Source: a virus
Lineage: Duplodnaviria; Caudoviricetes
IMG/VR virus record: IMGVR_UViG_3300033073_000489
Coordinates: 1 to 64,000 of that record
Strand: one strand, 5' to 3'
DNA: 64,000 nucleotides
Part shown: piece by piece, positions 9,589-52,886 of the stretch
Layout: the number at the start of each line of letters is the position of its first letter
How positions within the stretch are numbered: the stretch's first letter is position 1
The notes under the pieces: generated by a model
Told to the model about the DNA's origin: nothing
What the model saw: the letters and a program-made list of their open reading frames with translations, nothing else
Databases searched by the model: none
Position numbers and translations under genes: made by a program

Positions 9589-9661
9589 GTTTATTAACTC
9601 CGATTATAACGTTATATGGTATTTATCAATATGGTTTTGTAACCTTAATGTAAATACTTTT

Positions 9662-34218: not shown

Positions 34219-34226
34219 TATAAATA
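34219..34226 (+). promoter_or_regulatory. T4 late-type promoter
   Basis: TATAAATA, 22 nt upstream of ATG 34249. Confidence 0.65.
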
Positions 34227-34248
34227 CCCATATTATGAGGAATTAACG

Positions 34249-35190
34249 ATGATTAAATTTATTTTGGCTAGTTTTTTATTTTGCACGACAGCATTGGCAT
34301 TTGAACCAATTGGAAAGCCAATTACCATTATCACTGGGTTTGCGCCCGGTGCAACCGATCAAGCATTAAAGCCATATACCGATGCTTTAGCAAATAGTGG
34401 ATACACGTTTATAATTGAGCGCAGACCCGGTGCCGGTGGAATGATTGCATTAAATCATTTTGCAAATAATTCACCAGCTGATGGGTTTACACTATTTGCT
34501 ACAGCATCGTCGATGTTTACAGTTGCTCCGTTGTTTACACCCGAAACAGTTGCGCATAACGGTGTTATACCTATAACAACATTAAGCGCCGGGCCGATAG
34601 TTTTAGTTGCTAGTCGAGATTCATCGATCAAAACGTTTGATGACTTTAAGAAAACAGTCCAACAAAATACTACGCCTCCTATCGCAGTCCCTTCATTATT
34701 CTTTCAAGCCGGTGCAGAATATATTGCAACTAAGATTAATAAGAATGCAACAATTACAACGGCAATGTATAAATCTGGGCCAGATGCGTTACGAGATATC
34801 GTAGGAGGACATGCACAACTAGGAGTGATACAGTTATCGGTTGTTGCACCTATGCTAACATCTGATAAAATCTCAATCCTTGCAATTAGCGGAGAAACTA
34901 GATTAGATACCTTAACTAATGTTCCAACATTCTCTGAAAAGATTAAAGGTATTAATCCACGAATTGAAGCTAGCTGGGGTATTGCATTGCCGTTGGGAAC
35001 CCCTCCGGAAATTCAAAAATTTTATAATGATTTTTTCTTACAGGTTGCACAACAAGAATCAACTAAGAAAGCCTTGGCAGTTAATTACATGATTATTCCA
35101 AAGAACTACTTAGGAAGGCAAGCATTTGACAAACGTATTGCAGAAGAAACCGAAATGTGGTCGTCGGTGCTGCACAGGATTCCAAAATGA
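34249..35190 (+). CDS. Bug/TctC family tripartite tricarboxylate transporter substrate-binding protein
   Basis: Signal peptide; GFAPG.TD, ERRPGAGG, ADGFTL, YKSG..ALRDIVGGH, VPTFSE. Confidence 0.88.
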   Translation: MIKFILASFLFCTTALAFEPIGKPITIITGFAPGATDQALKPYTDALANSGYTFIIERRPGAGGMIALNHFANNSPADGFTLFATASSMFTVAPLFTPETVAHNGVIPITTLSAGPIVLVASRDSSIKTFDDFKKTVQQNTTPPIAVPSLFFQAGAEYIATKINKNATITTAMYKSGPDALRDIVGGHAQLGVIQLSVVAPMLTSDKISILAISGETRLDTLTNVPTFSEKIKGINPRIEASWGIALPLGTPPEIQKFYNDFFLQVAQQESTKKALAVNYMIIPKNYLGRQAFDKRIAEETEMWSSVLHRIPK

Positions 35191-35372
35191 GTTTTGAGCA
35201 AACTAATCCCTCAGACAATTCTGACCAACAGCCGTATGTTGGCCGCGGTCAAAGTGACTGGGCAGGCAGCGGAGTTGTAATCTATCGAAAAGAAGATAAA
35301 GGTCGGAAACAAGACCCTCAAACAAATATGCCCGGTGGTTTACCTAATATGGAGACCGGAGATGACGACTAA
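35187..35372 (+). CDS. Small Gly/Asp/Pro/Gln-rich peptide (61 aa)
   Basis: ATGA-coupled to the Bug gene; MSFEQTNPSDNSDQQPYVGRGQSDWAGSG..METGDDD. Confidence 0.4.
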   Translation: MSFEQTNPSDNSDQQPYVGRGQSDWAGSGVVIYRKEDKGRKQDPQTNMPGGLPNMETGDDD

Positions 35373-36072
35373 GCAGTATCTTAACGTAGTAGTCGATCAG
35401 GAAACAAAAGGTATTCTAACACGATGTTCAACACCAAGTGTTGCAAATGCTGTTGCTAGAGGAATCCCAAACAGCTCAATGATGATAATTGAGTTTCCGT
35501 TTATGAAGCACGAGATTGTTAATTATCAAACTGACATAAACTTAAATTATAAACTCTTAAGGAAGTTGTATCCCCAACATTCTGATGTGATTCCTCTAGA
35601 CAGCGAAAGCAATGTGTTTGAAGTAGTTGACGATACACCGTCAGGCCGGCCCTTTGATATAATACCGATGGACGCTACACCTGCTTGGATTGAACAACGA
35701 AAAATTGCAAATTTTAAAGCATTTGCATTTAATGACTTAGAGAACAGATGTGACAGATATCTAGCACGTATAGAAACATTTAGTCACGATGAACTATTTT
35801 ATCAATACCTTGCAAAAGAACTTGAGCAAGTAAACGTTGATGATAATTACTATCCGGTAGGAATCACTGAATGGGCTGAAATTAACGACATGAGTAATTT
35901 TGCAGCATACCAAGAACTTAAGATGAACTACCAGTCTAATGGAATTATTCTTATGCGCATTCATGCAATATGGAATAGATACCAGGACCTGATTAATGGT
36001 ATAAGCACATATGATGAGTTATGGAAATTAGTATACCAGGTAGAAACAGAGTTAAGGTTTGGTAAGAGATGA
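35362..36072 (+). CDS. Hypothetical protein, translationally coupled upstream of a PP-loop ATPase
   Basis: GGAG RBS plus ATG at 35362; ATGA overlap with 36069. Confidence 0.75.
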   Translation: MTTKQYLNVVVDQETKGILTRCSTPSVANAVARGIPNSSMMIIEFPFMKHEIVNYQTDINLNYKLLRKLYPQHSDVIPLDSESNVFEVVDDTPSGRPFDIIPMDATPAWIEQRKIANFKAFAFNDLENRCDRYLARIETFSHDELFYQYLAKELEQVNVDDNYYPVGITEWAEINDMSNFAAYQELKMNYQSNGIILMRIHAIWNRYQDLINGISTYDELWKLVYQVETELRFGKR

Positions 36073-37154
36073 AATCAGTTACTGCAAGTTTAGCATTAGA
36101 GCTTAAGGATCTAAGAGCATTAGACATTATTAAAAATTATCCGGATATTGATATCTACAGACAAACACATGTATTGATAGGACAGTCTTGGATTCTTGAT
36201 AGGACGCAAACTGTGCAATTACCATTTCGCAGCACAGTATTAGTTGAACATCAATTACCTGACTTTACGCTTATACCTGAATACGACTTATTAGATATTT
36301 GCCTCAGACGTGCGGCTGAATTGATTAGCACTAATCGTCAGTTATTCTTCTTCTGGTCTGGCGGCATTGATTCTACGCTAGGATTAGTTAGTTTTTTAAA
36401 ATTAGGTATCCCATTAGATCAAGTAACTGTAGTATGTAATAATGATAGCATACGAGAAAATTTAAAATTTTATCAGGATCACATTCGTGGAAAATTTAAG
36501 TTAATATCGTCTGAATTAATGATGCAACAAATGAAGACTACGCAAATTGACGGAATCATTGTAAGTTCAGAACATGGCGACTTAATGTATGGTCAAGATT
36601 TTGGCCATGCAATGTTTGAGATGTTTGGGACTAACTATTTGCGTGAAAAGCCAACTCGTGAGAATATTACTAAATTTTTTAGGCAAGGTAAGATGTCTGA
36701 CCAAGCTGCTAACTGTTGGTATGATTTATATATGGATAGTGCAAAAATGTCGCCTAGACCGATAGACACAACTTATGACTTTAGCTGGTGGGCCGGGTTT
36801 AATTGGAGGTGGCAATGGGCCAAAGAAAAAATTAAAATTAGGACTGCAATTGACCTAGACATTAGAACTTTCTTTTCAACGCACGAGTTTCAAAAATGGT
36901 CTGTAAATCATACACAGTCAGACATGAAAAATAAACGAGATATTAAAATAGAGTTTAAGAAAATTATATTAGACTATACACACGACCAGACATACTTTGA
37001 CACTAAGATCAAACATCCGTCTGTTACAATGTATTATGGCGGAAATTCTTTTGTAGCAATTGATGAGCAAGGAAAGAAAATATCTGCAAACGACTTTACA
37101 ATATTAGACTATTACCAGAGTGATAATTTTATAGCAAACTGGCTCAAGTCATAG
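36069..37154 (+). CDS. Asparagine-synthetase-C-like PP-loop ATPase (no glutaminase domain)
   Basis: FFFWSGGIDST, SSEHGDLMYG, RTFFS..FQKW. Confidence 0.75.
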   Translation: MKSVTASLALELKDLRALDIIKNYPDIDIYRQTHVLIGQSWILDRTQTVQLPFRSTVLVEHQLPDFTLIPEYDLLDICLRRAAELISTNRQLFFFWSGGIDSTLGLVSFLKLGIPLDQVTVVCNNDSIRENLKFYQDHIRGKFKLISSELMMQQMKTTQIDGIIVSSEHGDLMYGQDFGHAMFEMFGTNYLREKPTRENITKFFRQGKMSDQAANCWYDLYMDSAKMSPRPIDTTYDFSWWAGFNWRWQWAKEKIKIRTAIDLDIRTFFSTHEFQKWSVNHTQSDMKNKRDIKIEFKKIILDYTHDQTYFDTKIKHPSVTMYYGGNSFVAIDEQGKKISANDFTILDYYQSDNFIANWLKS

Positions 37155-37155
37155 A

Positions 37156-37180
37156 AAAAGGACCCGAAGGTCCTTTTCTA
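37156..37180. terminator. Bidirectional terminator, cUUCGg loop on the minus strand
   Basis: AAAAGGACC-CGAA-GGTCCTTTT between convergent genes. Confidence 0.85.
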
Positions 37181-37193
37181 TTAGTGTTACTAA

Positions 37194-38219
37194 TTAATCT
37201 GCTTTCTTGATTTCTTTAACCAATTGCTCACTACCTGGAACATAATGATATGCTCTAAAGTATTGTTGAGGAGCAGCTTCTCTTAGAGTAGCTGTTTCTT
37301 CTGCAGAAATTTCTTTAATTGTTACACCGTTAGCTACAGCATTGTCTTCGTATGCTTGCGCATCATCTAACGACCACTGACGTTCTAACTTAGCAACAAC
37401 CTTTGCTGCTTTCTTAAACACAGCTTGTTGTTCTGCTGTTAACGAATCAAAGAATGGTCCACCAACTAAGATAGTTGTTAAGAACATGCTGTGGTTTGTT
37501 TTGAGAACATTTTTACCTGCAAAGCGTAGATAAGTAGTTTCAATAGCACCACCTTTAGCTACTTGCTCTGCTGTTTGATCAATCTTCTGATTCATTCTGC
37601 TAGTTGCCTTAGCAGTAAATCTTTCAAAGAATGTGCGAGTCATTGGTGTTGTAGTAATGTCTACAGTCTTTAATGCTTCAACACTTTCAATTGGGTGATT
37701 AGATCCAACAATGCGATATCCACCTGAGTAAGTAAATGCTAGGCCTTTGACGTTAGTCTTGTCTCCTAGTTCCTTACATAGTGAATCACCGATTTCACCG
37801 TCTAATACTTTGCTAACGTGATCGTGACTGTTAAACAAGAAAGGCAAATCTAAAGTAGCAAACTTATCGTGCAAGTGTCCGCCGATAACTGTTACTTGTG
37901 TTTGGCTTAAATGAATCTTACCGTCGCGCATGCCGTTAAACATTGCAGCCCATTTCTTAGTTACGTCTTTCCATTCAATAGGAGTAAAGAAGTCACTGTT
38001 AGGCAACGACTCGATCCCGTCGACTGTTCCTGGGCGCATTTGAAGTTCTGGAATATCTCCATACTTTTCAATATACTGTTTCATGGTTAAAATTTCAATC
38101 TCAAACTGCCCTGGTAATTCTTTTTCTAGTTCAGCAGCAAATGCTTCTGCTGTTCTAACAAACAAATAGGCAGGTTGGTGAGCAATTAACCAACGTAGTT
38201 TCATAGGTCCTTGAGACAT
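37194..38219 (-). CDS. DctP-like TRAP substrate-binding protein, no signal peptide (paralogue 2)
   Basis: TLDLPFLFNSHDHVSKVLDGEIG, AFTYSGGYR, NHSMFLT. Confidence 0.8.
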   Translation of the reverse strand: MSQGPMKLRWLIAHQPAYLFVRTAEAFAAELEKELPGQFEIEILTMKQYIEKYGDIPELQMRPGTVDGIESLPNSDFFTPIEWKDVTKKWAAMFNGMRDGKIHLSQTQVTVIGGHLHDKFATLDLPFLFNSHDHVSKVLDGEIGDSLCKELGDKTNVKGLAFTYSGGYRIVGSNHPIESVEALKTVDITTTPMTRTFFERFTAKATSRMNQKIDQTAEQVAKGGAIETTYLRFAGKNVLKTNHSMFLTTILVGGPFFDSLTAEQQAVFKKAAKVVAKLERQWSLDDAQAYEDNAVANGVTIKEISAEETATLREAAPQQYFRAYHYVPGSEQLVKEIKKAD

Positions 38220-38231
38220 ATCTGCTCCTAA

Positions 38232-39176
38232 TTAATGTAGTTGAATCTTGCTAACAAGTCCTGGAGTAAAGTAGTCGGCATACATGTCGTATACTTGGCT
38301 AGTTACTTCCTTAAACTTATTAACTTCATCGCCTGACATAGTTACAACTTCAACACCTTCTGATTCGCATTGTGCTAAAATATTTGGAATATCTGCAACT
38401 GACTCACGACGCTCTGCGCGAGCTGCATTGAATGCGGCTGTTGCAAAAATTTCTTGAGTTGCTTGATCAAATTGAGACATGAAGTCTTTGTTTACAATAA
38501 TAGAAGTTAAGAACAAGCTGTGTGCTGTGTCGTTAACAACTTTGAAACTCTTGTGCTGATCTAGAGGGAACACACGAACGTATGTTGACTCACCAGCTTC
38601 GATGATACCTTGATCAGCAGCAGCGTTCATCTGCTCTAATTCAATACCTTCAAATGGGACAGCACCTAATAGCTTAAATGTATCAACTGCTACAGGGCTA
38701 CGGCTTGTGCGAACTTTCTTGCCTGCCCAAGCAGCAACAGTATCACCACGGAAGTTAGCAGGAACAACACGATAGCCACCGCTATATGTAAAGCTCATTG
38801 CGTGAATGTTACTATTCTTAGAAACACCAGCTAATAGCTCTGCACCAATTTCACCTTCTAAAACGCGATCAGCGTGTGCGTGATCTTGGAATAGGAATGG
38901 TAGATCTAAAGCATGTAGATCTTTATTGTAGTCAGCTAGCCATGTTGTGTAGATGTGGCTCATCTCGATTGTGCCGTCATTGATTAGGCCCATCAAGTCA
39001 TTCTTAGTAATTTTCTTACCATCATTATATTTTGTAGCATAGTCGCTTAGTGACAATACTTCAATATCAAACTTACCACCAGTTTTTTCGTTCACTTCTT
39101 GTGCGAAACGATTTGCTACTTTTAGGAAAAGTCCAATTGGTTCATGGGCGATTACCCAACGAATTTTTGTGCTCAT
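38232..39176 (-). CDS. DctP-like TRAP substrate-binding protein, no signal peptide (paralogue 1)
   Basis: ALDLPFLFQDHAHADRVLEGEIG, FTYSGGYR, GKKVRT, AHSLFLT; ATG 39176. Confidence 0.82.
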   Translation of the reverse strand: MSTKIRWVIAHEPIGLFLKVANRFAQEVNEKTGGKFDIEVLSLSDYATKYNDGKKITKNDLMGLINDGTIEMSHIYTTWLADYNKDLHALDLPFLFQDHAHADRVLEGEIGAELLAGVSKNSNIHAMSFTYSGGYRVVPANFRGDTVAAWAGKKVRTSRSPVAVDTFKLLGAVPFEGIELEQMNAAADQGIIEAGESTYVRVFPLDQHKSFKVVNDTAHSLFLTSIIVNKDFMSQFDQATQEIFATAAFNAARAERRESVADIPNILAQCESEGVEVVTMSGDEVNKFKEVTSQVYDMYADYFTPGLVSKIQLH

Positions 39177-39226
39177 ATGATTCTCCATTTAACGTTAAAT
39201 TGGGCAGGTCATGACTCTGCTCAAAG

Positions 39227-39234
39227 TATTTATA
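39227..39234 (-). promoter_or_regulatory. T4 late-type promoter for the DctP pair
   Basis: TATAAATA on the minus strand. Confidence 0.6.
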
Positions 39235-39487
39235 CTTTTGGAACTTCTAAGCTGTTATCTGCTAGTTTTTTGCCCCAATCGGCTATGTTCCATGCACGTT
39301 CGTGGAAGAAATAAAGTATGCTGTTAACTACTAGGGCAAAGCTAACGACACCTAGACCAACCATCCAGCTACCGCTTGCTAACCATCCGCCGATGAAATT
39401 AGTAATAGTTACTAAGATACGCCAGGTAATGACCTTGGCAACTGAGCGAGGGATGCGCTCTTGGAATTTAGTTTTAATATTGAACAT
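39230..39487 (-). CDS. DUF2061 family membrane protein
   Basis: RSVAKVITWR..ILYFFHERAWN. Confidence 0.85.
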   Translation of the reverse strand: MFNIKTKFQERIPRSVAKVITWRILVTITNFIGGWLASGSWMVGLGVVSFALVVNSILYFFHERAWNIADWGKKLADNSLEVPKV

Positions 39488-39561
39488 TATGTCTCCTTTG
39501 TAATTAAAACTGATTCCTAACCAAAATGCTTTCGTAAAAGCACTTCAGATAAGAATTTCTC

Positions 39562-40446
39562 TTACTTGCTGCTGTTAATTTTATCTTTATATTTGACTTG
39601 TAGAGATTTAACTTGCCCTACAGATCTAGTATAAAACTCTTCAGCAGTGACATTGTCAAACTGCGGCGGGCGCATTGCAGATAGATTATAGATCTCTTGC
39701 TCGCCTACTTTAGCAGTGGCATTGGTTAAAATCATTGCAATAGCTTTACGTCTTGCTTCTGGCATAGATTTATGTGCAACAGTAATATTAAAAACATATG
39801 GTGCATCAATTCCTAGTTGTTTTAATGTTTTTACATTGGGTGCTTGTTTTAACCTAGTAGGGCAACTGGCAGCAACCATTTGAAGTTTAGCGTTTTTCGT
39901 CTTTAATGCTTCATAGCTTTCAAACTTGTCAATTACAAATTCAACCCCGTTGTTTCCTGCCATATTGATCAAAGCATCGTTGTTACTCTTAAACACAATG
40001 TATCTAACATCAAACTTATACTTGTCACCTAGTGCTAGGGCAGTTAAGTGTGCAGCATTGCCATAGCCAACTCCCCCGACTACAAATTCTTTTTGCCCTT
40101 TTAAAGGTTTGTTAGTTACCACTGCCCAACAGGCATCACCGAAAGCGTGTAACGGAATATAGTCTGCTTCGTTTAGCTTACCCGACTCTACATTTTCTAC
40201 GTAAGCGGGGGCAATAATTGCAAGGCTGTTTTCATCTAAACTCTTCACAGCAATAATTTGATTACCACCTGGTTTAAATTCTACAATAAATTTGTAGATA
40301 GATTGACTAGCGTTAGCTTCGTCCACAACCCTGTGTAGTGCAGGAGTAGCACTATGTCCAGGACTGTAGGGGCTATAAATTTTAATTGTTTCTGCAAATA
40401 GAGAGTTGCTAAAAAGGATCATTAATCCAAGGATAATTTTTTTCAT
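39562..40446 (-). CDS. Bug/TctC-like substrate-binding protein (second, divergent copy)
   Basis: Signal peptide; YSPG, EFKPGGNQ, GGVGYGN..HL, IVFKS..ALINMAG, VKTLKQLG. Confidence 0.75.
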   Translation of the reverse strand: MKKIILGLMILFSNSLFAETIKIYSPYSPGHSATPALHRVVDEANASQSIYKFIVEFKPGGNQIIAVKSLDENSLAIIAPAYVENVESGKLNEADYIPLHAFGDACWAVVTNKPLKGQKEFVVGGVGYGNAAHLTALALGDKYKFDVRYIVFKSNNDALINMAGNNGVEFVIDKFESYEALKTKNAKLQMVAASCPTRLKQAPNVKTLKQLGIDAPYVFNITVAHKSMPEARRKAIAMILTNATAKVGEQEIYNLSAMRPPQFDNVTAEEFYTRSVGQVKSLQVKYKDKINSSK

Positions 40447-41693
40447 GTATCTGTCCAGTTGATTGAGTAATTAATAATGTGATGTCTAAAGTATTCTCTT
40501 ACACTAGGATCTTCCATTGAAAGCATTTCATAATCTTTGCTCAGTGCTAGGTTAGACTGCCACGGAAGAATTGCCTTACCTTTAATTAGTAAATTGCCTA
40601 ACGATTCTAATTTAGTTTTAAAATGAAAATACCAATCATTTTTATCATAGTTATGTATGTATTCACGAGCTACGTATTTGTAAGTCCCCACGGTATTTCT
40701 AATCTTACAACCGTTGTTATTATTGGCCATACTCCATAGTTGGTAGTCGGTTCCGTTAAACCAGTTAATTGTAGAATCTATACATTCACGTTTAGGCATT
40801 TCCATATTGAAATATAATGCACCGCGAACAGAACAGTTTAGATACTTAACATTAAAAATTAACCACCAAAAGAAATCATGTAATGTATGGACTGGAACTC
40901 TTGCAGTATTAATGTTATGGCGATACTTTTCGTATAACAATCTACCAAACTCTAATCCTTCGGGCGTATGATCATATGCCAAGTGTCTTACAATAATGTC
41001 TTTGTAAACACTAAAATGCACTTCGCCGGTTGCTATTTTATATTTTAATGGTCGCAGTCTTTCTCTAGTTTCTGGACTCAAATGTCTAATATACGCATCG
41101 TAGTTGTGATATAGTTCCAACCCAATACTAGTCCCCATAATGCAATCACCTTCGTCAGAAGTAATTGGCATGTATCCTGCATTAATGAGATCGTCATACC
41201 AATATTTGTGAGAGTCAAGTATTGTAAACTTACCAAAGATATATTTTTCCCACACATAGGGGTTTTCTATAATAACGTGAACGCTTGCACATATTACTAC
41301 AGACTTTAGTTCTTCTGTGGTTAAGTTCTTTAATAGTGCAATTAATACTAGTGTGCTATCCATGCCCCCAGAGTAAAGTAGTGCAAACTTTTTCCCTGCA
41401 TTAATTAAGGCTTTAATTTCCAGGGCACGGGCGTCGGTAACTTCTTCGAATGTTTTTTCAAACCTAGGGTTATACTCGGGCATAGCAAAGTCGGGTATAA
41501 TTTCTTGCTTCCATGGCAAGCTCCACTCGCTATCATTTCTACTTACAAAACGATTTAACGGAAAACGCCTAGCAATGTCTAGGTAAAATTTGCCACCGGG
41601 TCCTGCCTCTTCTCTAATACTGTTCCAGAAGTCCCACGGTGCAAAGTGATCGCCGCGAATATTATGGAAGTATATAGTATCATCTAAATTCAT
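40443..41693 (-). CDS. Asparagine-synthetase-C-like PP-loop ATPase
   Basis: LLYSGGMDST, TSDEGDCIMG; close paralogue of 43540..44799. Confidence 0.78.
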   Translation of the reverse strand: MNLDDTIYFHNIRGDHFAPWDFWNSIREEAGPGGKFYLDIARRFPLNRFVSRNDSEWSLPWKQEIIPDFAMPEYNPRFEKTFEEVTDARALEIKALINAGKKFALLYSGGMDSTLVLIALLKNLTTEELKSVVICASVHVIIENPYVWEKYIFGKFTILDSHKYWYDDLINAGYMPITSDEGDCIMGTSIGLELYHNYDAYIRHLSPETRERLRPLKYKIATGEVHFSVYKDIIVRHLAYDHTPEGLEFGRLLYEKYRHNINTARVPVHTLHDFFWWLIFNVKYLNCSVRGALYFNMEMPKRECIDSTINWFNGTDYQLWSMANNNNGCKIRNTVGTYKYVAREYIHNYDKNDWYFHFKTKLESLGNLLIKGKAILPWQSNLALSKDYEMLSMEDPSVREYFRHHIINYSINWTDT

Positions 41694-42445
41694 CTTTTTC
41701 TAATCAATGGAATTAATATTTTTGCAGAGCTGTCAAACTCCCACCATTTCTCACCAAAGTTGGCAGCACCAGCATTATAATGATGATTGTTATGCCAGCC
41801 GTGTCCCCATATAAACAATCCAGTAAACCAATTGTTAACTGAGTTATCGTCAGTATTATGATTCCTATATCCCATTGAAGGCAAATGCCCTACTAGGTTT
41901 ACTAGGTTATCCTGATGGTGACTTATTAGAATTGCAGGAATTAACATACCTAATGCAAATTGCCAAGAGATTAAAGTAGCAATAATTATAGTTCCCCAGA
42001 ATACTTTATTATGGTTTTCGTGTAAGAACATTAGATACGGATCTTTCATAATGTCTCTGGCCGATAGTAAATTTACAGTCTCTGGATTGATCTTGACCTG
42101 CCATGTAATAAACGCACTTAGCTTGCCGTGTATTGGACTGTGAAGGTCTTGCTCTTTATCAGCATATCTATGATGACTTCCCCTATGTAACGCCACCCAA
42201 AACGGCAAACTTCCGTCTGCACTCATGAGTCCTAAGTATGCTAATATCTTAGCAATGATAGGATATGTTTCAAAACTTTTGTGAGCAAAATATCTATGAT
42301 AACCAACTGCAACACCGTATCCGCCTATAAGAGTCCATAGAATAAAAATCCCAACAGCGTTTACCCATGTATAGTCTATAAAAAACAAACTAATAAAAAA
42401 AATTGCATGTAGCGGATAACTTACTTCATGTAAATGTTTATTCAT
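41690..42445 (-). CDS. Delta9-type membrane fatty acid desaturase
   Basis: His boxes HRYFAH, HRGSHH, HNNHH. Confidence 0.9.
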   Translation of the reverse strand: MNKHLHEVSYPLHAIFFISLFFIDYTWVNAVGIFILWTLIGGYGVAVGYHRYFAHKSFETYPIIAKILAYLGLMSADGSLPFWVALHRGSHHRYADKEQDLHSPIHGKLSAFITWQVKINPETVNLLSARDIMKDPYLMFLHENHNKVFWGTIIIATLISWQFALGMLIPAILISHHQDNLVNLVGHLPSMGYRNHNTDDNSVNNWFTGLFIWGHGWHNNHHYNAGAANFGEKWWEFDSSAKILIPLIRKR

Positions 42446-44799: not shown

Positions 44800-45524
44800 G
44801 CAGGACCATTCATTGTAAAGTTGTGTTTTTCGTCTATAAGAGTATAATAGTAATCTGCCATCCACCATACTTTGTCATAGTTTTCTCTCCAGATTGTTTC
44901 AATCTTAGATTTAGCTTCTTCAAGTGTTTGACTGAAATATAAAATCTTCTTAATTTCTTGAGTAATTCCGTTTGAAAAATCTGACCTATCGGTATACGAG
45001 CTAACAGTATCTAACCATTCTTTAGGTAGGAACTCTTGCGCTACAGTATTATTATCGTGGAAGTTTGCGGCTGCGTTACACACGCTAGTTGCATACATTG
45101 ACTTGTGAACATAGTCTGCATATTCTTTAATCTTTGTAAGCATTTCTAAAGGCCTACCAAACTTGTAGTCTGCCGGTAAACCTTGATAATCGAGCTGTAG
45201 CGGATTATCAATAATTCTTACCATAGGGAGCTGTCCTGCAATCAAGTCTGCAACACCTGCTTTCTTTTGTCTAGTCTTATCAAACAACATAAAATGTAAG
45301 CAGTTCTCGTTTGTCACTTTGCCGATCGATGCTGGCAAAACATACACCATCGAAGCAATCTTTGATGATAGCACTCTTGCGGTCTGAAGAGTAGTCCAAA
45401 GATCGTATTGATCGATTATCAGCCATCTATCAAAGACTTGACAGTAAATCCCGTAGTTCTTTCGGTTGCCGTCTTTATCAAAGTAGTAATGATGATATGC
45501 TGGCAAATTTGGTCCCCATTCCAT
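44796..45524 (-). CDS. Hypothetical protein, translationally coupled upstream of a PP-loop ATPase
   Basis: 242 aa; ATGA overlap; CTAAATA upstream. Confidence 0.75.
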   Translation of the reverse strand: MEWGPNLPAYHHYYFDKDGNRKNYGIYCQVFDRWLIIDQYDLWTTLQTARVLSSKIASMVYVLPASIGKVTNENCLHFMLFDKTRQKKAGVADLIAGQLPMVRIIDNPLQLDYQGLPADYKFGRPLEMLTKIKEYADYVHKSMYATSVCNAAANFHDNNTVAQEFLPKEWLDTVSSYTDRSDFSNGITQEIKKILYFSQTLEEAKSKIETIWRENYDKVWWMADYYYTLIDEKHNFTMNGPA

Positions 45525-45605
45525 TAATTAAAGTCCTATATTATAGGAAATATTTAGTGTGCGATGAATTTCAAGATAAATATTGTGACTAAAGGAGTCA
45601 AATAT

Positions 45606-45899
45606 ATGACCTATCAACATACAACTATCTTAATTAGACCGGACACTAGTTCGGAATTTTTTACGTTTACCCCTTCTGTCCAGGCATATGTTAAAGCAAC
45701 ATACGAAGACACAGGCAAGGTTCAAAACGTTTATACAGTTTCCCCAGACGGCCTATCAAAAACTTTACAAAAGACATGGGTTGATCACGAAGCATCTTTA
45801 CAGTTTGCACATGATCCTGCACTTCAGGAAGAGTTTGCAAGACGCGATGCATACATGATTGAGCGCGGTCACACTTACAGATCATTTCCAACACCCTAA
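45606..45899 (+). CDS. Small hypothetical protein (97 aa)
   Basis: GGAG RBS, GATAAATA upstream, ATG 45606. Confidence 0.7.
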   Translation: MTYQHTTILIRPDTSSEFFTFTPSVQAYVKATYEDTGKVQNVYTVSPDGLSKTLQKTWVDHEASLQFAHDPALQEEFARRDAYMIERGHTYRSFPTP

Positions 45900-45913
45900 T
45901 TTGAAAGGCGAGC

Positions 45914-46741
45914 ATGTTCCAACAGGAAGTATTAGCACATAAATCAGCAATTAAAGATAAGAATTTTGTTGTTCCGGACTATATCCTTAACAAAGGCGAA
46001 ACAAACGTAAATTTGTTTAACAGGCATTGTCCACATAGGATGTATCCTTTAGCAGAACCGGGACAACACGTAGAAAATATTCTGTGCGAACTGCACGGAT
46101 TTGAATGGACTAAATCTGGAATTCCTATCAACAACGATCGAAAGATTGGTTGCGGTAGTGCTAATATTGGTAAGTCTGGACTTGTGTTAAAAAACTTTAC
46201 AGAGCCCAATCATAAATGGGTTGATGTGTTAGCCAGCGAAACTGGCTTAGAATATAGTCACATGTGTAAGGGTGCCAGCAACGGCAACTGGTTATTCATG
46301 ATGGATATTCAAGCAGATTTGTTTCATATTAGAAAAGGCGGTGTCCACCCTGGCCTATCAGAAGAGACAAACTTAGACGAAGTTACATTAGATCAGGGCG
46401 ATGGTTGGGTCATACAATACTGCGCAACTGGGTTCTGGCTTGTAATTTATCCATACACTTTTATCGAATGGAGTCCCGGTTGCCTGGCGATAAACTATGT
46501 TACGCCTAACGACCCTGCAAGCGAATTTGGATTTACTTGGAATACACAGTTCTACTATGATCCTGCAACTACCTTAGAAAAACGTAAACAGTTTGAAACA
46601 CTAGAAGATGTTTTTAAGGAAGACGTTGGAGCGATCGAAAAGATAAAAGGAAAATTCTTTCCTGTTATGAAATCAGAGAGTCCACTTGAGGATCACTGTG
46701 TTCACTTTGGCCAGTGGTTGTTTCAGAACAGAGTGCGGTAA
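45914..46741 (+). CDS. Rieske [2Fe-2S] oxygenase-like protein
   Basis: CPHR..CELHG Rieske ligands; FHIRKGGVH and FKED mononuclear-iron-like residues. Confidence 0.75.
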   Translation: MFQQEVLAHKSAIKDKNFVVPDYILNKGETNVNLFNRHCPHRMYPLAEPGQHVENILCELHGFEWTKSGIPINNDRKIGCGSANIGKSGLVLKNFTEPNHKWVDVLASETGLEYSHMCKGASNGNWLFMMDIQADLFHIRKGGVHPGLSEETNLDEVTLDQGDGWVIQYCATGFWLVIYPYTFIEWSPGCLAINYVTPNDPASEFGFTWNTQFYYDPATTLEKRKQFETLEDVFKEDVGAIEKIKGKFFPVMKSESPLEDHCVHFGQWLFQNRVR

Positions 46742-47645
46742 GTAGCTGCTCTTCTGTATAGATATAAGTGTTAGACCTAACTTTAGCAACAATATTTTTT
46801 GCACCAAAGTCTAACATAAAGCGAGGCTTTGACATTACCCCTGGGTCTTGTTCCCCTTCAAAGCCTACCATCTTTGGTCTCACTTCAATACTTGGCCACC
46901 ACTCTTGATGTATAATTGCCTTACTACTGTTAATTGACAGTTTCCCTGGGATATTGTCGTTAAGCAAGGCCTGAACCATAGGTAGACGAGTATGTGCTAC
47001 AATTAGCTCAGGCGAATACTCATACCAGTCAGTAATAGCCGGACGACCTATAGTTTTATGATAAACAGCCCAGTGCTTTGGCCCTTCTGCTAGTTCAAAC
47101 ACCCACGGATATTTTTTAGTCATATCTCGACTAGTTCTGCGCCAGTAAGATTCCCCACTTCCAAATATAGGAGTTCCATCTAGATATTCAGTCATCTTCA
47201 TATGCGGTAACCAACCTGTGCTATTTGCATAGCACTTGGACCAAATATCATACGCTTCTTGTTCAAAGAATTTTTCTAGATTAAAATCTATCACTTTAGG
47301 AGTAACATTTAATTCTTGACAAATTTTAATAGCACGATCAAACTCTCTATAGTTGTAGTTGTTTTCGTATTTGAAGATGTAAACATTAATTGGTATTTTT
47401 AAATCGTGGTAGATTCGTAAAATAATTTCGCTGTCAATTCCACCGGAGAACAACAGATCTAGATCACCTGAGAATGTATCGCGAATAAGGGTAGCGTTTG
47501 CAGCTAATTCTTCGTAGTAGCTTCTTACAGGGCCGGTTACTATATTTTTAAGTTTAATGTTAAATCTGCTAGTTGGCTTTAGTTTAGGCCCGTATGGCTC
47601 TGCATTATCGTAGTTCCATTCTAACCAATTATCTTTATAAAACAT
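46665..47645 (-). CDS. PP-loop ATPase (asparagine-synthetase-like), fourth copy
   Basis: LLFSGGIDSE, FGSGE; ATG 47645 with TATAAATA at 47666-47673. Confidence 0.72.
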   Translation of the reverse strand: MFYKDNWLEWNYDNAEPYGPKLKPTSRFNIKLKNIVTGPVRSYYEELAANATLIRDTFSGDLDLLFSGGIDSEIILRIYHDLKIPINVYIFKYENNYNYREFDRAIKICQELNVTPKVIDFNLEKFFEQEAYDIWSKCYANSTGWLPHMKMTEYLDGTPIFGSGESYWRRTSRDMTKKYPWVFELAEGPKHWAVYHKTIGRPAITDWYEYSPELIVAHTRLPMVQALLNDNIPGKLSINSSKAIIHQEWWPSIEVRPKMVGFEGEQDPGVMSKPRFMLDFGAKNIVAKVRSNTYIYTEEQLLTALCSETTTGQSEHSDPQVDSLIS

Positions 47646-47718
47646 GTTTTGTCCTGTAAGTGAGATATTTATAGGGCTAGTTAAAGCTGTAGATAAATAC
47701 TGAATAAAGGAATTCAAT

Positions 47719-48516
47719 ATGTCAATCACAGCTAGCAAGATTAAATCATTATGGTATCCACGAGAGTGGTTCTTTATTCTAATGCAATTATTAGCCGCAG
47801 GATCGTTTGTGTGGGCATTACTTAATCCTGCAGGATTAGACTATTGGTTGCTGTCCCTATTGGGTTATTTTCTAATCACGTGTTTAGGCATTACTGTTAC
47901 ATTTCACAGACTGTTAACACATCGCTCTTATGTGCTAGCTAAACCGTTAGAAAGACTGTTTAGTTTCTTTGGCAACATTGGCTGCACCGGCAGTTCAGTT
48001 GGGTGGGTCTTTGTCCACAGGGCTCATCACAAACATGCAGATCAAGCAGGTGACCCGCACAGTCCAGTAACCTTAGGACCTGTTGGGGCTATAGTTGGTG
48101 ACTACGGCGGTCCATTTAATAAATGGTTAGTTAAGGATATCATCAACGATCCAGTTCAGCGCTTTATGCACGAATACTATATTGCAATGATCCTTGCTCT
48201 GTTAGCAGGATTGTTCATTGTTAATCCGTTAGTTGCAGTATACTTGTTTTTAATTCCAGTATTCTTTAATACGATTGCATCACGTTTTAGTAATTGGATT
48301 GATCACGATCCTAAGTTTGGAACTCGCCCTGTAGAAACTAAAGATGCTTCACACAACGTTTGGTGGTGGGCATATTTGACATTTGGCGAAGGTTGGCACA
48401 ACAACCATCACGCACGACCCGGCGATTATCAAATTGGTAAAAAATGGTATCAGTTCGATCCGGGCAGATATGTTATTGAGTTGTTGATGCTTTTAAAACT
48501 AGCACATCCTAGATAA
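47719..48516 (+). CDS. Delta9-type membrane fatty acid desaturase
   Basis: HRLLTH, HRAHH, GEGWHNNHH. Confidence 0.9.
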   Translation: MSITASKIKSLWYPREWFFILMQLLAAGSFVWALLNPAGLDYWLLSLLGYFLITCLGITVTFHRLLTHRSYVLAKPLERLFSFFGNIGCTGSSVGWVFVHRAHHKHADQAGDPHSPVTLGPVGAIVGDYGGPFNKWLVKDIINDPVQRFMHEYYIAMILALLAGLFIVNPLVAVYLFLIPVFFNTIASRFSNWIDHDPKFGTRPVETKDASHNVWWWAYLTFGEGWHNNHHARPGDYQIGKKWYQFDPGRYVIELLMLLKLAHPR

Positions 48517-48519
48517 CTA

Positions 48520-49068
48520 ATGCGGTATTTTAAAGAAATTGATATAGATTTTTATGACGAAATTGTTAAGAAATCTATAGAATATGTATTATCACAACCC
48601 TTTGTAACAGAAGAGAAGATAGACAATTTTTTTAAATTAGATTTAAAATCATATTTTAATTATTGTCCAGAAGCCCTTAAGGCGTTTAGTAAACTAGGCC
48701 TTACGCCTATGATGGTTGCAGTTTACTATACTGTTAAAGACGAAGAGAGTCCTATACATATAGACTATCCAACTCCCGATTGTAGAATAAACATTCCTTT
48801 AATAAACTGCGACAGTTCTGCTACAGTATTTTATGAAGCACCACTTACTACTAAAGAGCAACAAAACAATGGTTTGAATTTTTATTTGTGCGATGCCGAC
48901 GCTGCTGTTGAAGTTGCAAGAGTTACTATTAGAAAAGCAACAGTTATTCGTGTTAATAAACCTCACAAGGTTCATATGTTTAAAAAAGGTGCTCCGCGTA
49001 TGTGCCTAACTGTTCGATTTGTGCAAGATCCTAAGTTTTTATTAGAAGACGACGATGAGATATTATAA
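48520..49068 (+). CDS. HxD..H 2OG-Fe(II)-type oxygenase
   Basis: IHIDY, RINIPL, PHKV, PRMCLT. Confidence 0.65.
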   Translation: MRYFKEIDIDFYDEIVKKSIEYVLSQPFVTEEKIDNFFKLDLKSYFNYCPEALKAFSKLGLTPMMVAVYYTVKDEESPIHIDYPTPDCRINIPLINCDSSATVFYEAPLTTKEQQNNGLNFYLCDADAAVEVARVTIRKATVIRVNKPHKVHMFKKGAPRMCLTVRFVQDPKFLLEDDDEIL

Positions 49069-49618
49069 TAAAATTGATTTAGATAATATAGATATCATTA
49101 TCGAAAAGAGTCTAAACTATGTAAAACTTCAAACAGATGTTTATCTTAGAAAGAAAGATGCTTCATTCTATTGGCTTAATGCATCTGAGTTACTTGAAGC
49201 ATGTCCGGAAATTAATCAGAGCTTTTCTAAGTTTGGATTAACTTGCAATTATGCTGCGGTGTATATTACCTATAAGAAATCAGATGCAACAATACATGTT
49301 GACGATTACTATCACAAAGCGAGAATAAACATTCCCCTGTTAAATTGCAAAGGTAGCTTTACAAATTTTTATAGTAATGTTAAATTTGAGAAAGTGATTA
49401 ATGAATTTACAAAGTGCCCGTATCTTCGAGTTGTAAATGATGATTACAAGTTAGAGGATCGTGTTGAAATAGACCAAGCAACTGTCATTTTAACAAGCGA
49501 AGCACATATGGTAGACATGAACATTGCCGAATCTCCTAGGATTGCTCTTACACTAGGATTTGATAAAGATCCAGCGTTCCTTATTCCACAAGACACTACG
49601 GTTATTCGTAGTGAATAA
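49055..49618 (+). CDS. HxD..H 2OG-Fe(II)-type oxygenase (tandem paralogue)
   Basis: IHVDD, RINIPL, AHMV, PRIALT. Confidence 0.65.
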   Translation: MRYYNKIDLDNIDIIIEKSLNYVKLQTDVYLRKKDASFYWLNASELLEACPEINQSFSKFGLTCNYAAVYITYKKSDATIHVDDYYHKARINIPLLNCKGSFTNFYSNVKFEKVINEFTKCPYLRVVNDDYKLEDRVEIDQATVILTSEAHMVDMNIAESPRIALTLGFDKDPAFLIPQDTTVIRSE

Positions 49619-50210
49619 AGTCAGGGTATCTTGCCTGGCTTTCTTCGATTAACTTTTTATAATAGTCTGTTTTAAAAGAACCGTAATAAACAATAAGTTG
49701 TTTATGGTGCCCATACCAGAAGTCTGTGCCGTGTTGCGACTTGTTATCCCAATACAACCAAGTATTTGAATCAGGGGGCAATCGCTGATACTTTTGTTCT
49801 TCATTTACTTTGTAATAAAATGTAGGTTTGAAATTATTATCATAAAGCATTGAGCGAACACTAATTGCTGGAACTGTATGATCATTGTGCGGAATAACTG
49901 TAGCTAAACTAGACACTACTCGCATTGCTTTAATCTCAACTGGAAACGCATCTAGGTTATTAAACAAGGTTGGAAACAAATCTGGACAGTCAACATTTGG
50001 TGCAGAATATCCAGTTAGTGCTTCTGTATCGACACCGGGGGCTACATACACATCAAATCCGCGCCATTCTGCTCCAGTCTCATTATGATTTTTATTAACC
50101 TTTGGTATTCGTTTACCTTCAGTTAACCAAAGGCGCCACCAGCGCGGCCAATCTACTGGCTGTATCTTTGGCCATACTATCGGAGCTGAAATTATTTTTA
50201 AGTCGTCCAT
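49602..50210 (-). CDS. HxD..H oxygenase-like protein
   Basis: IPHND, QHGT; weaker similarity than the others. Confidence 0.5.
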   Translation of the reverse strand: MDDLKIISAPIVWPKIQPVDWPRWWRLWLTEGKRIPKVNKNHNETGAEWRGFDVYVAPGVDTEALTGYSAPNVDCPDLFPTLFNNLDAFPVEIKAMRVVSSLATVIPHNDHTVPAISVRSMLYDNNFKPTFYYKVNEEQKYQRLPPDSNTWLYWDNKSQHGTDFWYGHHKQLIVYYGSFKTDYYKKLIEESQARYPDFIHYE

Positions 50211-50215
50211 GTGGT

Positions 50216-50243
50216 TATAAATAGTTGTATATAATTATTTATG
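50216..50243. promoter_or_regulatory. Back-to-back late-type promoters
   Basis: TATAAATA (+) at 50216-50223 and CATAAATA (-) at 50236-50243 between divergent genes. Confidence 0.55.
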
Positions 50244-50831
50244 ACCATGAAAGAACTCTATAAAAATATTGTAATTCCAAATTTTGAATCAATTCAACAA
50301 GAGCTACTTGCCTGTATTGATCACGATTACAAAGCAGATACAAAACCTCATGCGTTTACTTATAGTGAACAATACATGTCAGAAAAGTGTCCGCAGTTTA
50401 TGAGCTGGCTACGTCCAAGGTGCAAACTGCCAATCAGACTCTTAAGATTTTATATAACGCCACCACATCAAAAGCTAGGCGCACATATAGACGGTGGCGG
50501 CAGAAGCCCTGTAGTTCCGTTAGGATTAAACATACCAGTTGCAGGTTCAACAAATACGTTTATGACATGGTATGAGTGTAAGCCTGAAAATTTACGCACA
50601 GACAACCCAGATGGATACTTAGGCGGAGTTCATCCTAAAGATTATACGCAACTAGTTCCGATTGAATCTATTGAAATCACTAAACCGTGCTTTACTAATA
50701 ATTCAATCATGCACGGTGTTGAAAACAAGAGTGACGAATACCGAGTTATGTTTACCGTTCGATGGGTGCTAGATCATTTTATTGGAAGAACTATTGAGGA
50801 CTGTATTAAAACCGAAGGGCTATTTGAATGA
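50241..50831 (+). CDS. HxD..H 2OG-Fe(II)-type oxygenase
   Basis: AHIDG, LNIPV, MHGV, YRVMFTVRW. Confidence 0.65.
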   Translation: MTMKELYKNIVIPNFESIQQELLACIDHDYKADTKPHAFTYSEQYMSEKCPQFMSWLRPRCKLPIRLLRFYITPPHQKLGAHIDGGGRSPVVPLGLNIPVAGSTNTFMTWYECKPENLRTDNPDGYLGGVHPKDYTQLVPIESIEITKPCFTNNSIMHGVENKSDEYRVMFTVRWVLDHFIGRTIEDCIKTEGLFE

Positions 50832-51589
50832 GATATCTAGCAGCTAGTGCCAACACTATTACAAATGTTCAATTATTTACAGGCGTTGCTTCTGTTATAG
50901 GATTGTTCTTTGCCGACTTTACACTAACAAATATATTAATTACTATTGCGTTCTTTTATATCTATAGTATTTTAGGTATCAGTATTACGCTACACAGGTA
51001 TTATACTCACAAGGCGTTTGAATTTAAACATCCTGCTCTTAAATGGTTGTTTACTTTGTTTGCTTTGTTAGCAGGCCGTGCAAGTATACTAGGTTGGGTA
51101 TATGTCCACAGACTGCACCATGCTAACACAGATAACGACAAAGATCCGCACTCGCCCCTAACTATTGGATATAAACTATTTGGGTTTAAACACATAGAAG
51201 AAAAGTCAGAGAAGATGAAAATTTTCCTAGTCAAAGATTTAATGACCAAGGAGCACATCTGGATCAATAACTATTACCTAACAGTTATTATAAGTTGGAT
51301 TATACTAATGGGACTAATCAATCCTAGTCTAATTTACTTTACTTGGATCTTACCAGCATTTATCGTTCAGCTTAGTCAAAATAATTTTAACTACTTTGCA
51401 CACAAGAACGGGTATAGGAACTTTGAAACTAAAGACATGAGCACAAATAATGCTTGGTTGTTTCCGTTTATTCTAGGCGATGCTTGGCATAACAATCATC
51501 ACGGTAGACCTGCTGTTTCAACTACAAAAGTAAAATGGTGGGAAATTGATCCAGCTGAATGGATTATTACTTTGGTAAAGAAGGCTTAG
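50828..51589 (+). CDS. Delta9-type membrane fatty acid desaturase
   Basis: HRYYTH, HRLHH, GDAWHNNHH. Confidence 0.9.
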   Translation: MRYLAASANTITNVQLFTGVASVIGLFFADFTLTNILITIAFFYIYSILGISITLHRYYTHKAFEFKHPALKWLFTLFALLAGRASILGWVYVHRLHHANTDNDKDPHSPLTIGYKLFGFKHIEEKSEKMKIFLVKDLMTKEHIWINNYYLTVIISWIILMGLINPSLIYFTWILPAFIVQLSQNNFNYFAHKNGYRNFETKDMSTNNAWLFPFILGDAWHNNHHGRPAVSTTKVKWWEIDPAEWIITLVKKA

Positions 51590-52214
51590 CCTGTAGTTCT
51601 TCTACGGAATATGGGCTAGCGCCTTGCTCTAAAGGACTAACATTATCGTAATCTTTTCTGAACTCGGGGCGCAAACTCCGGTGTTTGACAGTCATGTCAG
51701 TGGGCTTAACTTGTTCACCTAACAGCCTGTAAACAAATCTAGGCTCTGGGATAGTATTTGCTGGAACACGAGCATATGTTTCTAAGTCATATCTTCCGGT
51801 ATCTACCCAGGGATTCTTCATCCATTGACGCTGATAAACATGTTCTAGTCGCGATGCTAGTGTGTAAAAGTAGTCCCAATATTTTCTATGTTCTGCAATT
51901 TCAAAACAGCCTTTCATTAAGTATCCCATCTCGGGCTTATCAAATGATAGGATATTACTAAATCGATTAGACCATAACGATGTAATAGTCCAGATGTTCA
52001 TGTCGTCTTGTTTTCCAAAACGTAGAGTTGCCCAGCTAATCATCTTATCTTCTTCGTAATACCCAAGGGCCAATGCAATCGGGCTAGTTGTAAAATAATA
52101 GTAGTAGCGTTTGTCTAACTGATCAGATGGTGCTGTTCCGCCGTGACGTGACTTTAACGAAGTCATTTTTATTGCTTCGTCAAAATCCATTATGTTTAAT
52201 ACTTTTAATCTCAT
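51567..52214 (-). CDS. GNAT-fold-like hypothetical protein
   Basis: Paralogous to 42438..42974; ATG 52214. Confidence 0.5.
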   Translation of the reverse strand: MRLKVLNIMDFDEAIKMTSLKSRHGGTAPSDQLDKRYYYYFTTSPIALALGYYEEDKMISWATLRFGKQDDMNIWTITSLWSNRFSNILSFDKPEMGYLMKGCFEIAEHRKYWDYFYTLASRLEHVYQRQWMKNPWVDTGRYDLETYARVPANTIPEPRFVYRLLGEQVKPTDMTVKHRSLRPEFRKDYDNVSPLEQGASPYSVEELQAKPSLPK

Positions 52215-52241
52215 GCCTGCAATCTCATAATAAGTATATGT

Positions 52242-52850
52242 ATGTATATGATCCACGAATATAAACAGTTTGATCAAGAGCGATTTTTTCATTTTTTAAA
52301 AAAAGAACATCTTGATATTAAACACCCTGCACACATTAACATGTGGCATGATGATTGGAAAACTCACAATAATACGCTTCCTTATCTCTTAGAACAGACT
52401 AACAGATTCGTAGAGCCCAAAGGTAATTTTTATATTCTTACAGATAATGATACTATTGTAGGTTGTAGCGGAGTCTATATCAGTGACTTCAGTGATAAAG
52501 TGGCGATGGCCGGAACTCGATCGTGGATTACTAAAGAATATCGAAATAGGGGATTGCTAAAAGATTATCTCTTACCTGAACACAAAGATTGGGCTATTGC
52601 AAATAAATGTGAACAAGTTGCACTATGCTTTAATGATTATAACAAGAATTTAATTGAAGTGTTTAATAGAACTCGGCTAGCGGAACCCGTTAATAGAATA
52701 ACATCAAGGTCTGATCGTAACTTATTTTATTCAGGTCTTCATCGAGTTCCATTTCGTGTAAACATACAATACACACCTCAGTGGGTCATCTACGAAACTA
52801 TTGCACCCGGTGAAAGTTTTAGCTGGGAAACGATTCGTAATCTAGACTAA
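52242..52850 (+). CDS. GNAT family N-acyltransferase
   Basis: IVGCSGVY, RSWITKEYRNRGL (motif A). Confidence 0.75.
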   Translation: MYMIHEYKQFDQERFFHFLKKEHLDIKHPAHINMWHDDWKTHNNTLPYLLEQTNRFVEPKGNFYILTDNDTIVGCSGVYISDFSDKVAMAGTRSWITKEYRNRGLLKDYLLPEHKDWAIANKCEQVALCFNDYNKNLIEVFNRTRLAEPVNRITSRSDRNLFYSGLHRVPFRVNIQYTPQWVIYETIAPGESFSWETIRNLD

Positions 52851-52857
52851 GCAGTCA

Positions 52858-52886
52858 AAAAAATAGGACCCGGAGGTCCTATTATT
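52858..52886. terminator. Terminator at the right boundary of the enzyme cluster
   Basis: ATAGGACC-CGGA-GGTCCTAT with a flanking A-tract. Confidence 0.75.

Follow-up and report, generated by a model that had tools for sequence, protein, structure and literature searches.

A phage island of AsnB-shaped PP-loop enzymes, solute-binding proteins and desaturases: a possible modular kit for amide formation on carboxylates

Enzymes of the AsnB family adenylate a carboxylate, and the AsnB-type amide and lactam synthetases whose glutaminase is absent or dead (beta-lactam synthetase, carbapenam synthetase, the hydroxyamidotransferase TsnB9), like the AsnB/ASNS synthetase domain, carry the PP-loop motif SGGxDS. 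In the archaeal two-subunit GMP synthetase and the WbuX-type sugar amidotransferases (with HisH/HisF-like partners), the PP-loop protein is accompanied by a separate nitrogen-donor subunit, and in lasso-peptide systems, which combine a B protease, a C cyclase, and a precursor peptide, the cyclase is an AsnB-like enzyme without glutaminase activity and has a ∼200–240-aa partner gene. The binding proteins of TRAP and TTT transporters bind carboxylates, TctC being the tricarboxylate (citrate) receptor family, and cyanophage PstS is a phage-encoded binding protein that boosts host phosphate uptake. Here we describe an ∼18.6-kb island (positions 34219–52886) in which such families stand side by side; it lies in the first 64 kb (hereafter, the window) of the 82.8-kb IMG/VR viral record IMGVR_UViG_3300033073_000489, whose CheckV completeness is 23%, so that a jumbo phage is implied. 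The island holds 24–25 open reading frames (ORFs) on both strands with the orientation flipping repeatedly, whereas all genes in the flanks on either side are on the minus strand; a first-pass annotation made from the sequence alone had described the same layout with about 23 genes. Our best explanation, held tentatively and at a little under even confidence, is that the island is a modular kit, predicted to be expressed late in infection, that binds a carboxylate, amidates it with ATP and subjects an acyl or carboxylate substrate to oxidative tailoring.

The SGGxDS motif occurs in four island proteins, as SGGMDS in g09 (PPL-A copy 2; 40443–41693, minus strand) and g13 (PPL-A copy 1; 43540–44799, minus strand), which are 65% identical, and as SGGIDS in g04 (PPL-B; 36069–37154, plus strand) and g17 (PPL-C; 46665–47738, minus strand, likely start 47645). 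All four had been taken for asparagine-synthetase-type ATPases without a glutaminase domain. Such a domain is indeed absent from all of them, and the AsnB type held for three, which form one AsnB-shaped family with g04 as a distant member (profile E 2.6e-30), whereas g17 belongs to a PP-loop family apart, with similarity to QueC, LarE and AsnB at motif level only. G109, G110, D112, and S113 are invariant in the PPL-A family alignment. By VIA comparison, an AlphaFold model of g09 (pLDDT 88) best matched TsnB9 (7YLZ, Z 12.9), followed by human ASNS (9B6C, Z 12.1), beta-lactam synthetase (1JGT, Z 11.7), carbapenam synthetase (1Q15, Z 10.0), and AsnB (1CT9, Z 9.1); these top five matches are all of the AsnB family, with 193–270 residues aligned, and generic PP-loop enzymes rank below them (Z ≤8.2). 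The top Foldseek matches were also ASNS/AsnB, weakly (E ≥0.01), and PPL-A has a DEGDxIFG motif that may correspond to the AsnB signature GEGSDExFGG. The chemistry that PPL-A would be expected to share with AsnB-type synthetases is carboxylate adenylation and then amide formation. Unlike those enzymes, it has no N-terminal Ntn domain (no Cys-2 glutaminase), with ∼95 residues before the PP-loop and no GATase Pfam match; it comes with a separate partner, U14, and with linked solute-binding proteins; and it is found in uncultured viruses and a few contigs of bacterial metagenome-assembled genomes (MAGs). More than 380 homologues of g09 were found, every one unnamed and without a Pfam domain, and a PPL-A protein search of 50,697 GenBank phage records returned no match. 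PHROGs and NCBIfam searches with the island unknowns gave motif-level matches to the PP-loop and nothing further.

The partner, U14 (g14; 44796–45524, minus strand), is a ∼240-aa protein whose gene precedes PPL-A on the same strand. At most of 35 junctions inspected, the stop codon of U14 and the start codon of PPL-A share bases in an ATGA, and the pair in the window is alike, the true g13 start being 44799. U14 was modeled with a pLDDT of 89, and its sole structural relatives were ∼200-aa uncharacterised proteins of uncultured Caudovirales; a comparison with the Atlas gave nothing usable. A full-library profile search yielded 187 representative clusters at 50% identity, of which the 150 representatives listed are all stand-alone proteins of 83–297 aa, and among longer proteins none was a fusion of U14 to another domain. 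The proposal that U14 is a split-off glutaminase domain was unsupported (no match to PDB sequences, Foldseek E ≥0.4 and a best VIA Z of 4.7 against PDB structures, no fusions). Between the same phages, identity decreases from DctP-like proteins through TctC and PPL-A to U14, the fastest-evolving component, and its invariant Arg, Ser, and Lys residues suggest a putative binding or catalytic site.

Two-part PP-loop amidotransferases are comparable to U14/PPL-A in having an adenylating subunit beside a separate small partner gene, but U14 resembles no known glutaminase fold and a nitrogen-donor role for it is hypothetical. The likeness to lasso-peptide systems likewise extends to the AsnB-like enzyme and the size of its partner; here, however, among peptides of 60 aa or more, no precursor gene or other conserved small ORF adjoins the pair, no conserved gene lies ahead of U14, neither a transglutaminase nor an RRE-like protein was among the matches to U14, and lasso cyclases usually match the Asn_synthase model, which PPL-A does not. 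A second partner, U03 (g03; 35335–36072, plus strand, likely true start M10 at 35362), is encoded upstream of the PP-loop gene g04; the U03–PPL-B pair is conserved in two other loci (L042 and L044), and U03 has no detectable kinship to U14.

An alignment-based scan for PPL-A yielded 50 viral loci, in which families were counted within 10 kb of PPL-A. U14 was present in 47 of them and a binding protein of any kind in 29 (DctP-like in 24, TctC in 16); a desaturase was found in 15, PPL-C in 13, PPL-B in 11, and DUF2061 in 9. The gene directly downstream of PPL-A, recorded in 56 loci, encoded TctC (a g08 homologue) in 13, a DctP-like protein in 12, DUF2061 with a DctP gene next in line in 5, and a ∼190-aa GNAT-like protein in 12. 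As a control, 80 loci (966 kb) surrounding the ligase of related phages were searched, and they contained zero PP-loop, binding-protein, desaturase, Rieske, or HxD..H homologues; the matches obtained were to g25, in three contigs already known as island carriers, and to a flanking kinase, and nothing else. The genes are thus functionally linked rather than chance neighbours, with a conserved core and a periphery that recurs in very different phages and is absent from the controls. Independent assortment without a conserved core, the outcome named beforehand as contrary to a shared pathway, is not what the loci show, since 47 of 50 have U14 ahead of PPL-A. The single fixed pathway of about 23 genes that the first-pass annotation envisaged did not survive the comparison: gene content is variable, and the loci are built of small modules, each of a partner, a PP-loop enzyme, and a binding protein or GNAT, to which a desaturase, oxygenases, and a PP-loop protein of a second type may be added.

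The closest PPL-A homologue (75% identity) is on a 345-kb phage contig with which the island is syntenic over 17 genes, and the carriers comprise both T4-like genomes (∼170 kb, with gp32 and gp59) and jumbo phages (∼345 kb). Nucleotide searches of GenBank phages with the island and with its left flank gave zero matches. Bacterial MAG contigs of high GC, from Xanthobacteraceae and Burkholderiales, carry the U14/PPL-A pair as well; its neighbours there (an AcrB pump, a trypsin-like peptidase, and unknowns) are uninformative. In an alphaproteobacterial MAG locus of GC 0.60 (L063, 2713–9194), a PPL-C-like gene, a gene for a 597-aa FA_desaturase protein, and PPL-A lie within 7 kb, with no U14. We regard the island, with confidence somewhat short of even, as one phage's form of a modular accessory kit that passes among large phages of aquatic habitats, all uncultured, and is also present in a few contigs of bacterial MAGs. 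Two further loci have distinctive surroundings. On a 188-kb contig (L007, 11278–20138), a U14/PPL-A/TctC unit is followed by genes for a methyltransferase, a BKACE beta-keto-acid cleavage enzyme, an SDR, an AMP-binding ligase, another PP-loop protein, and a radical SAM protein, which is a richer small-molecule-type context. In the other (L041, 5968–12506), the core pair is flanked by genes for a D-Ala-D-Ala carboxypeptidase (Peptidase_S11), a hexapeptide acyltransferase, a GNAT, and a beta-lactamase/PBP-like protein, which hint at a cell-wall peptide context in that lineage.

Four island genes encode solute-binding proteins, as had been noticed at the outset. The TctC/Bug-family protein g01 (34249–35190, plus strand) is clear (Pfam PF03401, E 4.4e-24, 85.9 bits), while g08 (39562–40446, minus strand), directly downstream of g09, falls just under the cut-off (25.8 bits against 27); the two DctP-like proteins, g05 (37194–38219, minus strand; PF03480, E 6.7e-31, 108 bits) and g06 (38232–39188, minus strand; PF03480, 125 bits), are both secure. 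The two types differ in their N termini. Both g01, with the signal peptide MIKFILASFLFCTTALA cleaved before FEP, and g08 have a Sec-type signal peptide, as does every phage TctC homologue. The phage DctP-like proteins, in contrast, start at the mature fold (‘M..IRWVIAHEP’), with no signal peptide in g05, g06, or ∼20 homologues, and are presumably cytoplasmic. This family is large and highly conserved, with >1,380 signal-less proteins and >120 clusters at 80–94% identity, all of ∼314 aa, and among the contigs listed none is longer than ∼207 kb; against GenBank phages, only remote matches of ≤30% identity were found, on bacterial-type DctP genes. The Arg that binds the carboxylate in TRAP proteins is kept in 20 of 22 phage DctP-like proteins, including g06 (KVRT). 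Second DctP-like copies have lost this clamping residue, which is Thr in g05 and Gly in the copy of another locus (L059, 19199–20155).

No TctA, DctM, or DctQ is encoded in the 82.8-kb record, as had been claimed, and two relatives, one of 345 kb (94% complete) and one of 173 kb (100% complete), have neither DctM nor TctA (the DctM-less records being G001 and G005). Because TctA is absent from the phage records, TctC would need a host partner. A full-length DctM homologue (E 7e-62) is present at 110833–112077 of one 244-kb record (G002, the record of locus L047); five large records that bear the island yielded no other membrane subunit of a transporter, and in that record no DctP gene follows PPL-A. 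As with cyanophage PstS and phage desaturases, the phage brings only one subunit and the host would supply the partners, and the signal peptides of g01 and g08 are as expected of an uptake receptor; the DctP-like family differs from PstS in being signal-less and tied to the enzyme pair. The earlier suggestion that the cluster's own binding proteins read a signal is not supported for the DctP-like proteins, a family that is signal-less, presumably cytoplasmic, highly conserved, and encoded immediately after the enzyme. The small membrane protein DUF2061, also foreseen, is g07 (39230–39487, minus strand; Pfam PF09834, E 2.6e-14). In bacteria, DUF2061 genes figure among the members of regulons for iron limitation or Fur, namely those of Caulobacter (PMC3751524), Shewanella (PMC12442407), and Vibrio parahaemolyticus (PMC12341060).

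The enzymes that would act as tailoring add-ons were confirmed in part. The three Delta9-type membrane desaturases were borne out, with g10 (41690–42445, minus strand; PF00487 and His boxes), g18 (47719–48516, plus strand), and g23 (50828–51589, plus strand) all scoring 54–70 bits with the FA_desaturase model (cut-off 29.7); g18 aligns over its full length with SCD1 (4ZYO; residues 19–264, E 6.8e-14) and has all three of its His boxes (HRLLTH, HRAHH, GEGWHNNHH). The single Rieske [2Fe-2S] oxygenase-like protein, g16 (45914–46741, plus strand), also stood, its Rieske domain (PF00355, with the motif CPH..CELH) scoring 25.9 bits against a cut-off of 20.3 and its catalytic domain (PF00848) 22.5 bits, below the cut-off of 24.9; it had no match among PDB sequences. 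The five HxD..H oxygenases originally listed are reduced to three with a fourth in doubt. The HxD motif is present in g12, g19, g20, and g22. The paralogues g19 and g20 (48520–49618, plus strand), of a virus-only family, form one family with g22 (50241–50831, plus strand; hhalign E 3e-12), g12 (42965–43540, minus strand) is weakly linked to them (hhalign E 5e-4), and g21 had no relation detectable by hhalign. An Asp_Arg_Hydrox match of g22 is weak (18.9 bits, cut-off 22.6), and the Atlas model of g19 is nearest to virus-only clusters, some with PF05118. The family is thus placed near Asp/Asn hydroxylases and 2-oxoglutarate (2OG) oxygenases, and its iron-triad function is predicted from sequence. 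One of three proposed GNAT-like proteins was upheld, g25 (52242–52850, plus strand; PF00583, 23.4 bits, cut-off 20.7). The other two, g11 (42438–43004, minus strand) and g24 (51567–52292, minus strand), are paralogues of each other (hhalign E 2.9e-9) and are not detectably GNATs, with no Pfam match even at E ≤5 and no hhalign relation to g25.

The T4 late-promoter consensus TATAAATA or (A/C)TAAATA is found 24–45 nt upstream of g01, g06, g14, g18, g21, and g22, and g17 and g15 likewise have a motif of this type ahead of what are probably their true starts. Most transcription units have such a T4-late-type motif, (T/C)ATAAATA. Copies of TATAAATA lie at 34219–34226 (plus strand, the 7-mer ATAAATA being 29 nt before g01), 39227–39234 (g06), 47666–47673 (g17), and 50216–50223 (g22, containing ATAAATA 24 nt upstream); CTAAATA is 33 nt upstream of g14, and ATAAATA is 26 nt upstream of g18 and 32 nt upstream of g21. 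Outside the island, the motif precedes a giant ORF (ATAAATA at 9620–9626, 32 nt upstream of the start), a tail-fibre-like gene, and one more gene. In the window as a whole, the 7-mer HTAAATA is three-fold depleted (21 found against 66 ± 8 expected), and most of its copies stand 20–45 nt ahead of a start codon. Such a distribution suggests that the motif is under selection as a promoter and avoided elsewhere. This pattern fits co-expression of the island with structural genes late in infection.

Taken together, these observations lead us to favour a carboxylate-to-amide kit. The gene for a binding protein directly behind PPL-A is the strongest functional clue, because both families handle carboxylates, and it is this adjacency of carboxylate-binding and carboxylate-adenylating families that favours the reading. 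The working unit would be the translationally coupled U14 and PPL-A, usually followed by TctC, a DctP-like protein (often with DUF2061), or a GNAT. A binding protein would hold the carboxylate, with TctC in the periplasm for uptake by host TctAB and the DctP-like protein in the cytoplasm; PPL-A would adenylate the carboxylate with ATP and transfer it to an amine or ammonia, giving an amide; and U14 would provide specificity or the nitrogen donor. The Delta9-type desaturases, the Rieske oxygenase, and the Asp/Asn-hydroxylase-like oxygenases might then tailor the same or a related acyl or carboxylate substrate, and the entire set would be turned on late by the T4-late-type promoters. The island shows no nonribosomal peptide synthetase, polyketide synthase, or carrier protein and, among peptides of 60 aa or more, no precursor peptide; the acyl-amide, the modified peptide, and the virion decoration put forward in the first-pass annotation are hypothetical.

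A bolder version, which we consider unlikely, is that U14 and PPL-A make up a new viral class of two-subunit amide-forming enzyme, in which U14 replaces the glutaminase domain as nitrogen donor or selector of the substrate and a TRAP-type protein is a cytoplasmic substrate-delivery subunit, the product being a late amide-linked compound or lipid. If true, this would be the first TRAP solute receptor acting within a cytoplasmic enzyme and would give an amide compound or lipid not known from cells. A glutaminase-less AsnB-type system with an undescribed partner is present, and its coupling to transporter-less binding proteins is unprecedented. The literature searched contained no description of the module, and a freshwater-phage paper (PMC6802176), presumably the one from which the BFVD matches come, makes no mention of the island genes. 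The module is common in uncultured aquatic phages though absent from the GenBank phage records searched, and present auxiliary-gene catalogues would break it up into separate entries labelled ‘hypothetical’, ‘TRAP transporter’, and ‘desaturase’. The module points to virus-borne, ATP-dependent amide formation on bound carboxylates, accompanied by lipid-type desaturation and oxygenation, and it makes two questions tractable, namely what ligand a transporter-less, signal-less TRAP receptor holds and what U14 does for an AsnB-like enzyme.

Several results weigh against the carboxylate-to-amide kit. PPL-A had no match to the Pfam Asn_synthase model (PF00733) at E ≤0.01, an insignificant one to TIGR01536 (E 0.09, 11.7 bits, cut-off 267), and none of significance among PDB sequences with its profile (best E 0.13), and the U14 model matched no fold among PDB structures. 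One physical role cannot be common to TctC, which is exported, and the DctP-like protein, which is cytoplasmic. The co-occurrence figures were counted within 10 kb and on related contigs and so are not independent events, and in 15 of the 50 viral loci the U14/PPL-A core pair stands alone, so that neither binding proteins nor oxygenases are a required part. Finally, phage desaturases have been described as stand-alone auxiliary genes (PMC5776448), from which the island differs in having three paralogues among oxygenases and ligases.

Some of the same facts bear on the alternative that survives best, in which the island is a loose set of independent auxiliary genes in a hyperplastic region, with no common substrate: the desaturases would tune host membrane fluidity, TctC would boost tricarboxylate uptake, and the oxygenases and PP-loop enzymes would have unrelated jobs. 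We judge this unlikely, albeit to be taken seriously. It would accommodate the differing gene content of the loci and the solitary core pairs, the stand-alone phage desaturases, the orientation flips and many separate promoters within the island, and the presence in some neighbourhoods of unrelated auxiliary genes (ClpP, heme oxygenase, MFS transporter, radical SAM). Such a set does not account for a binding-protein gene directly behind PPL-A on the same strand in ∼30 loci, in T4-like and jumbo phages alike, nor for the absence of these families from the 966 kb of control DNA, nor for PPL-A, PPL-C-like, and desaturase-domain genes lying together in the GC 0.60 bacterial MAG locus; moreover, a DctP-like protein without a signal peptide is unable to serve periplasmic uptake.

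We think it rather improbable that the island encodes a late system for modifying phage structural or host envelope proteins, in which U14 would be the target-recognition subunit and the chemistry would comprise AsnB-like amidation or cross-linking (as lasso cyclases perform on peptides), Asp/Asn hydroxylation, and acetylation. The late-type promoter motifs common to the island and structural genes are consistent with it, as is the rapid evolution of U14, which might be expected of an adaptor; the family of g19, g20, and g22 has its nearest relatives in Asp/Asn beta-hydroxylases, enzymes with protein substrates, and the PPL-A gene of one locus (L045) has a tail-fibre-like gene (Peptidase_S74) 2.6 kb downstream. 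However, exported TctC, carboxylate-type binders, and membrane acyl desaturases suit small molecules or lipids better, no small ORF or precursor is conserved beside U14 among peptides of 60 aa or more, and the island is located between a tRNA-like element and RNA-repair-type genes, with no adhesin next to it.

Last, an iron/citrate module, in which (ferric) carboxylates would be the ligands of TctC and DctP-like proteins, DUF2061 would have a part in iron homeostasis, the AsnB-like ligases would build a carboxylate-amide chelator by chemistry analogous to that of NIS siderophore synthetases, and all of these would supply the many iron enzymes of the island, is very improbable: the regulon listings of bacterial DUF2061 genes, the textbook standing of TctC as the citrate receptor family, and the presence of at least seven proteins from families that depend on iron (the three desaturases, g16 with its Rieske domain, and three or four HxD..H oxygenases) speak for it, but the reasoning is purely associative, siderophore-type genes, a TonB-dependent receptor, and an IucD-type hydroxylase are lacking, and DUF2061 accompanies PPL-A in only 9 of 50 loci.

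The flanks of the island contain phage genes, namely those for a virion/tail-fibre-like protein, a DNA ligase, an endonuclease, and a metallophosphoesterase, and 17 tRNA-type genes. The ATP-dependent DNA ligase (23109–24437, minus strand) has 336 IMG/VR relatives at 71–81% identity, and the lineage, though uncultured, is for that reason taken to be very abundant. The giant ORF (1–9588, minus strand) encodes at least 3196 aa and continues beyond the window start. The island is bordered by a tRNA-like element at 34059–34157 and a terminator-like hairpin at 52883–52862, and the RNA-repair-type genes are on the far side of the island from the former. ARAGORN calls this element, directly left of the island, a 99-nt ‘tRNA-Arg(tcg)’ on the minus strand, which is unusually long for a tRNA; it is the tRNA mimic of the first-pass annotation. 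Among the remaining island genes, the small protein g15 (45564–45899, plus strand) recurs in 6 of the 50 viral loci and g21 (49602–50210, minus strand) in 7, both being proteins of unknown type. As listed, g24 and g25 have 51 nt in common where their 5′ ends meet, and the late motif is missing from both; their true starts probably lie further in.

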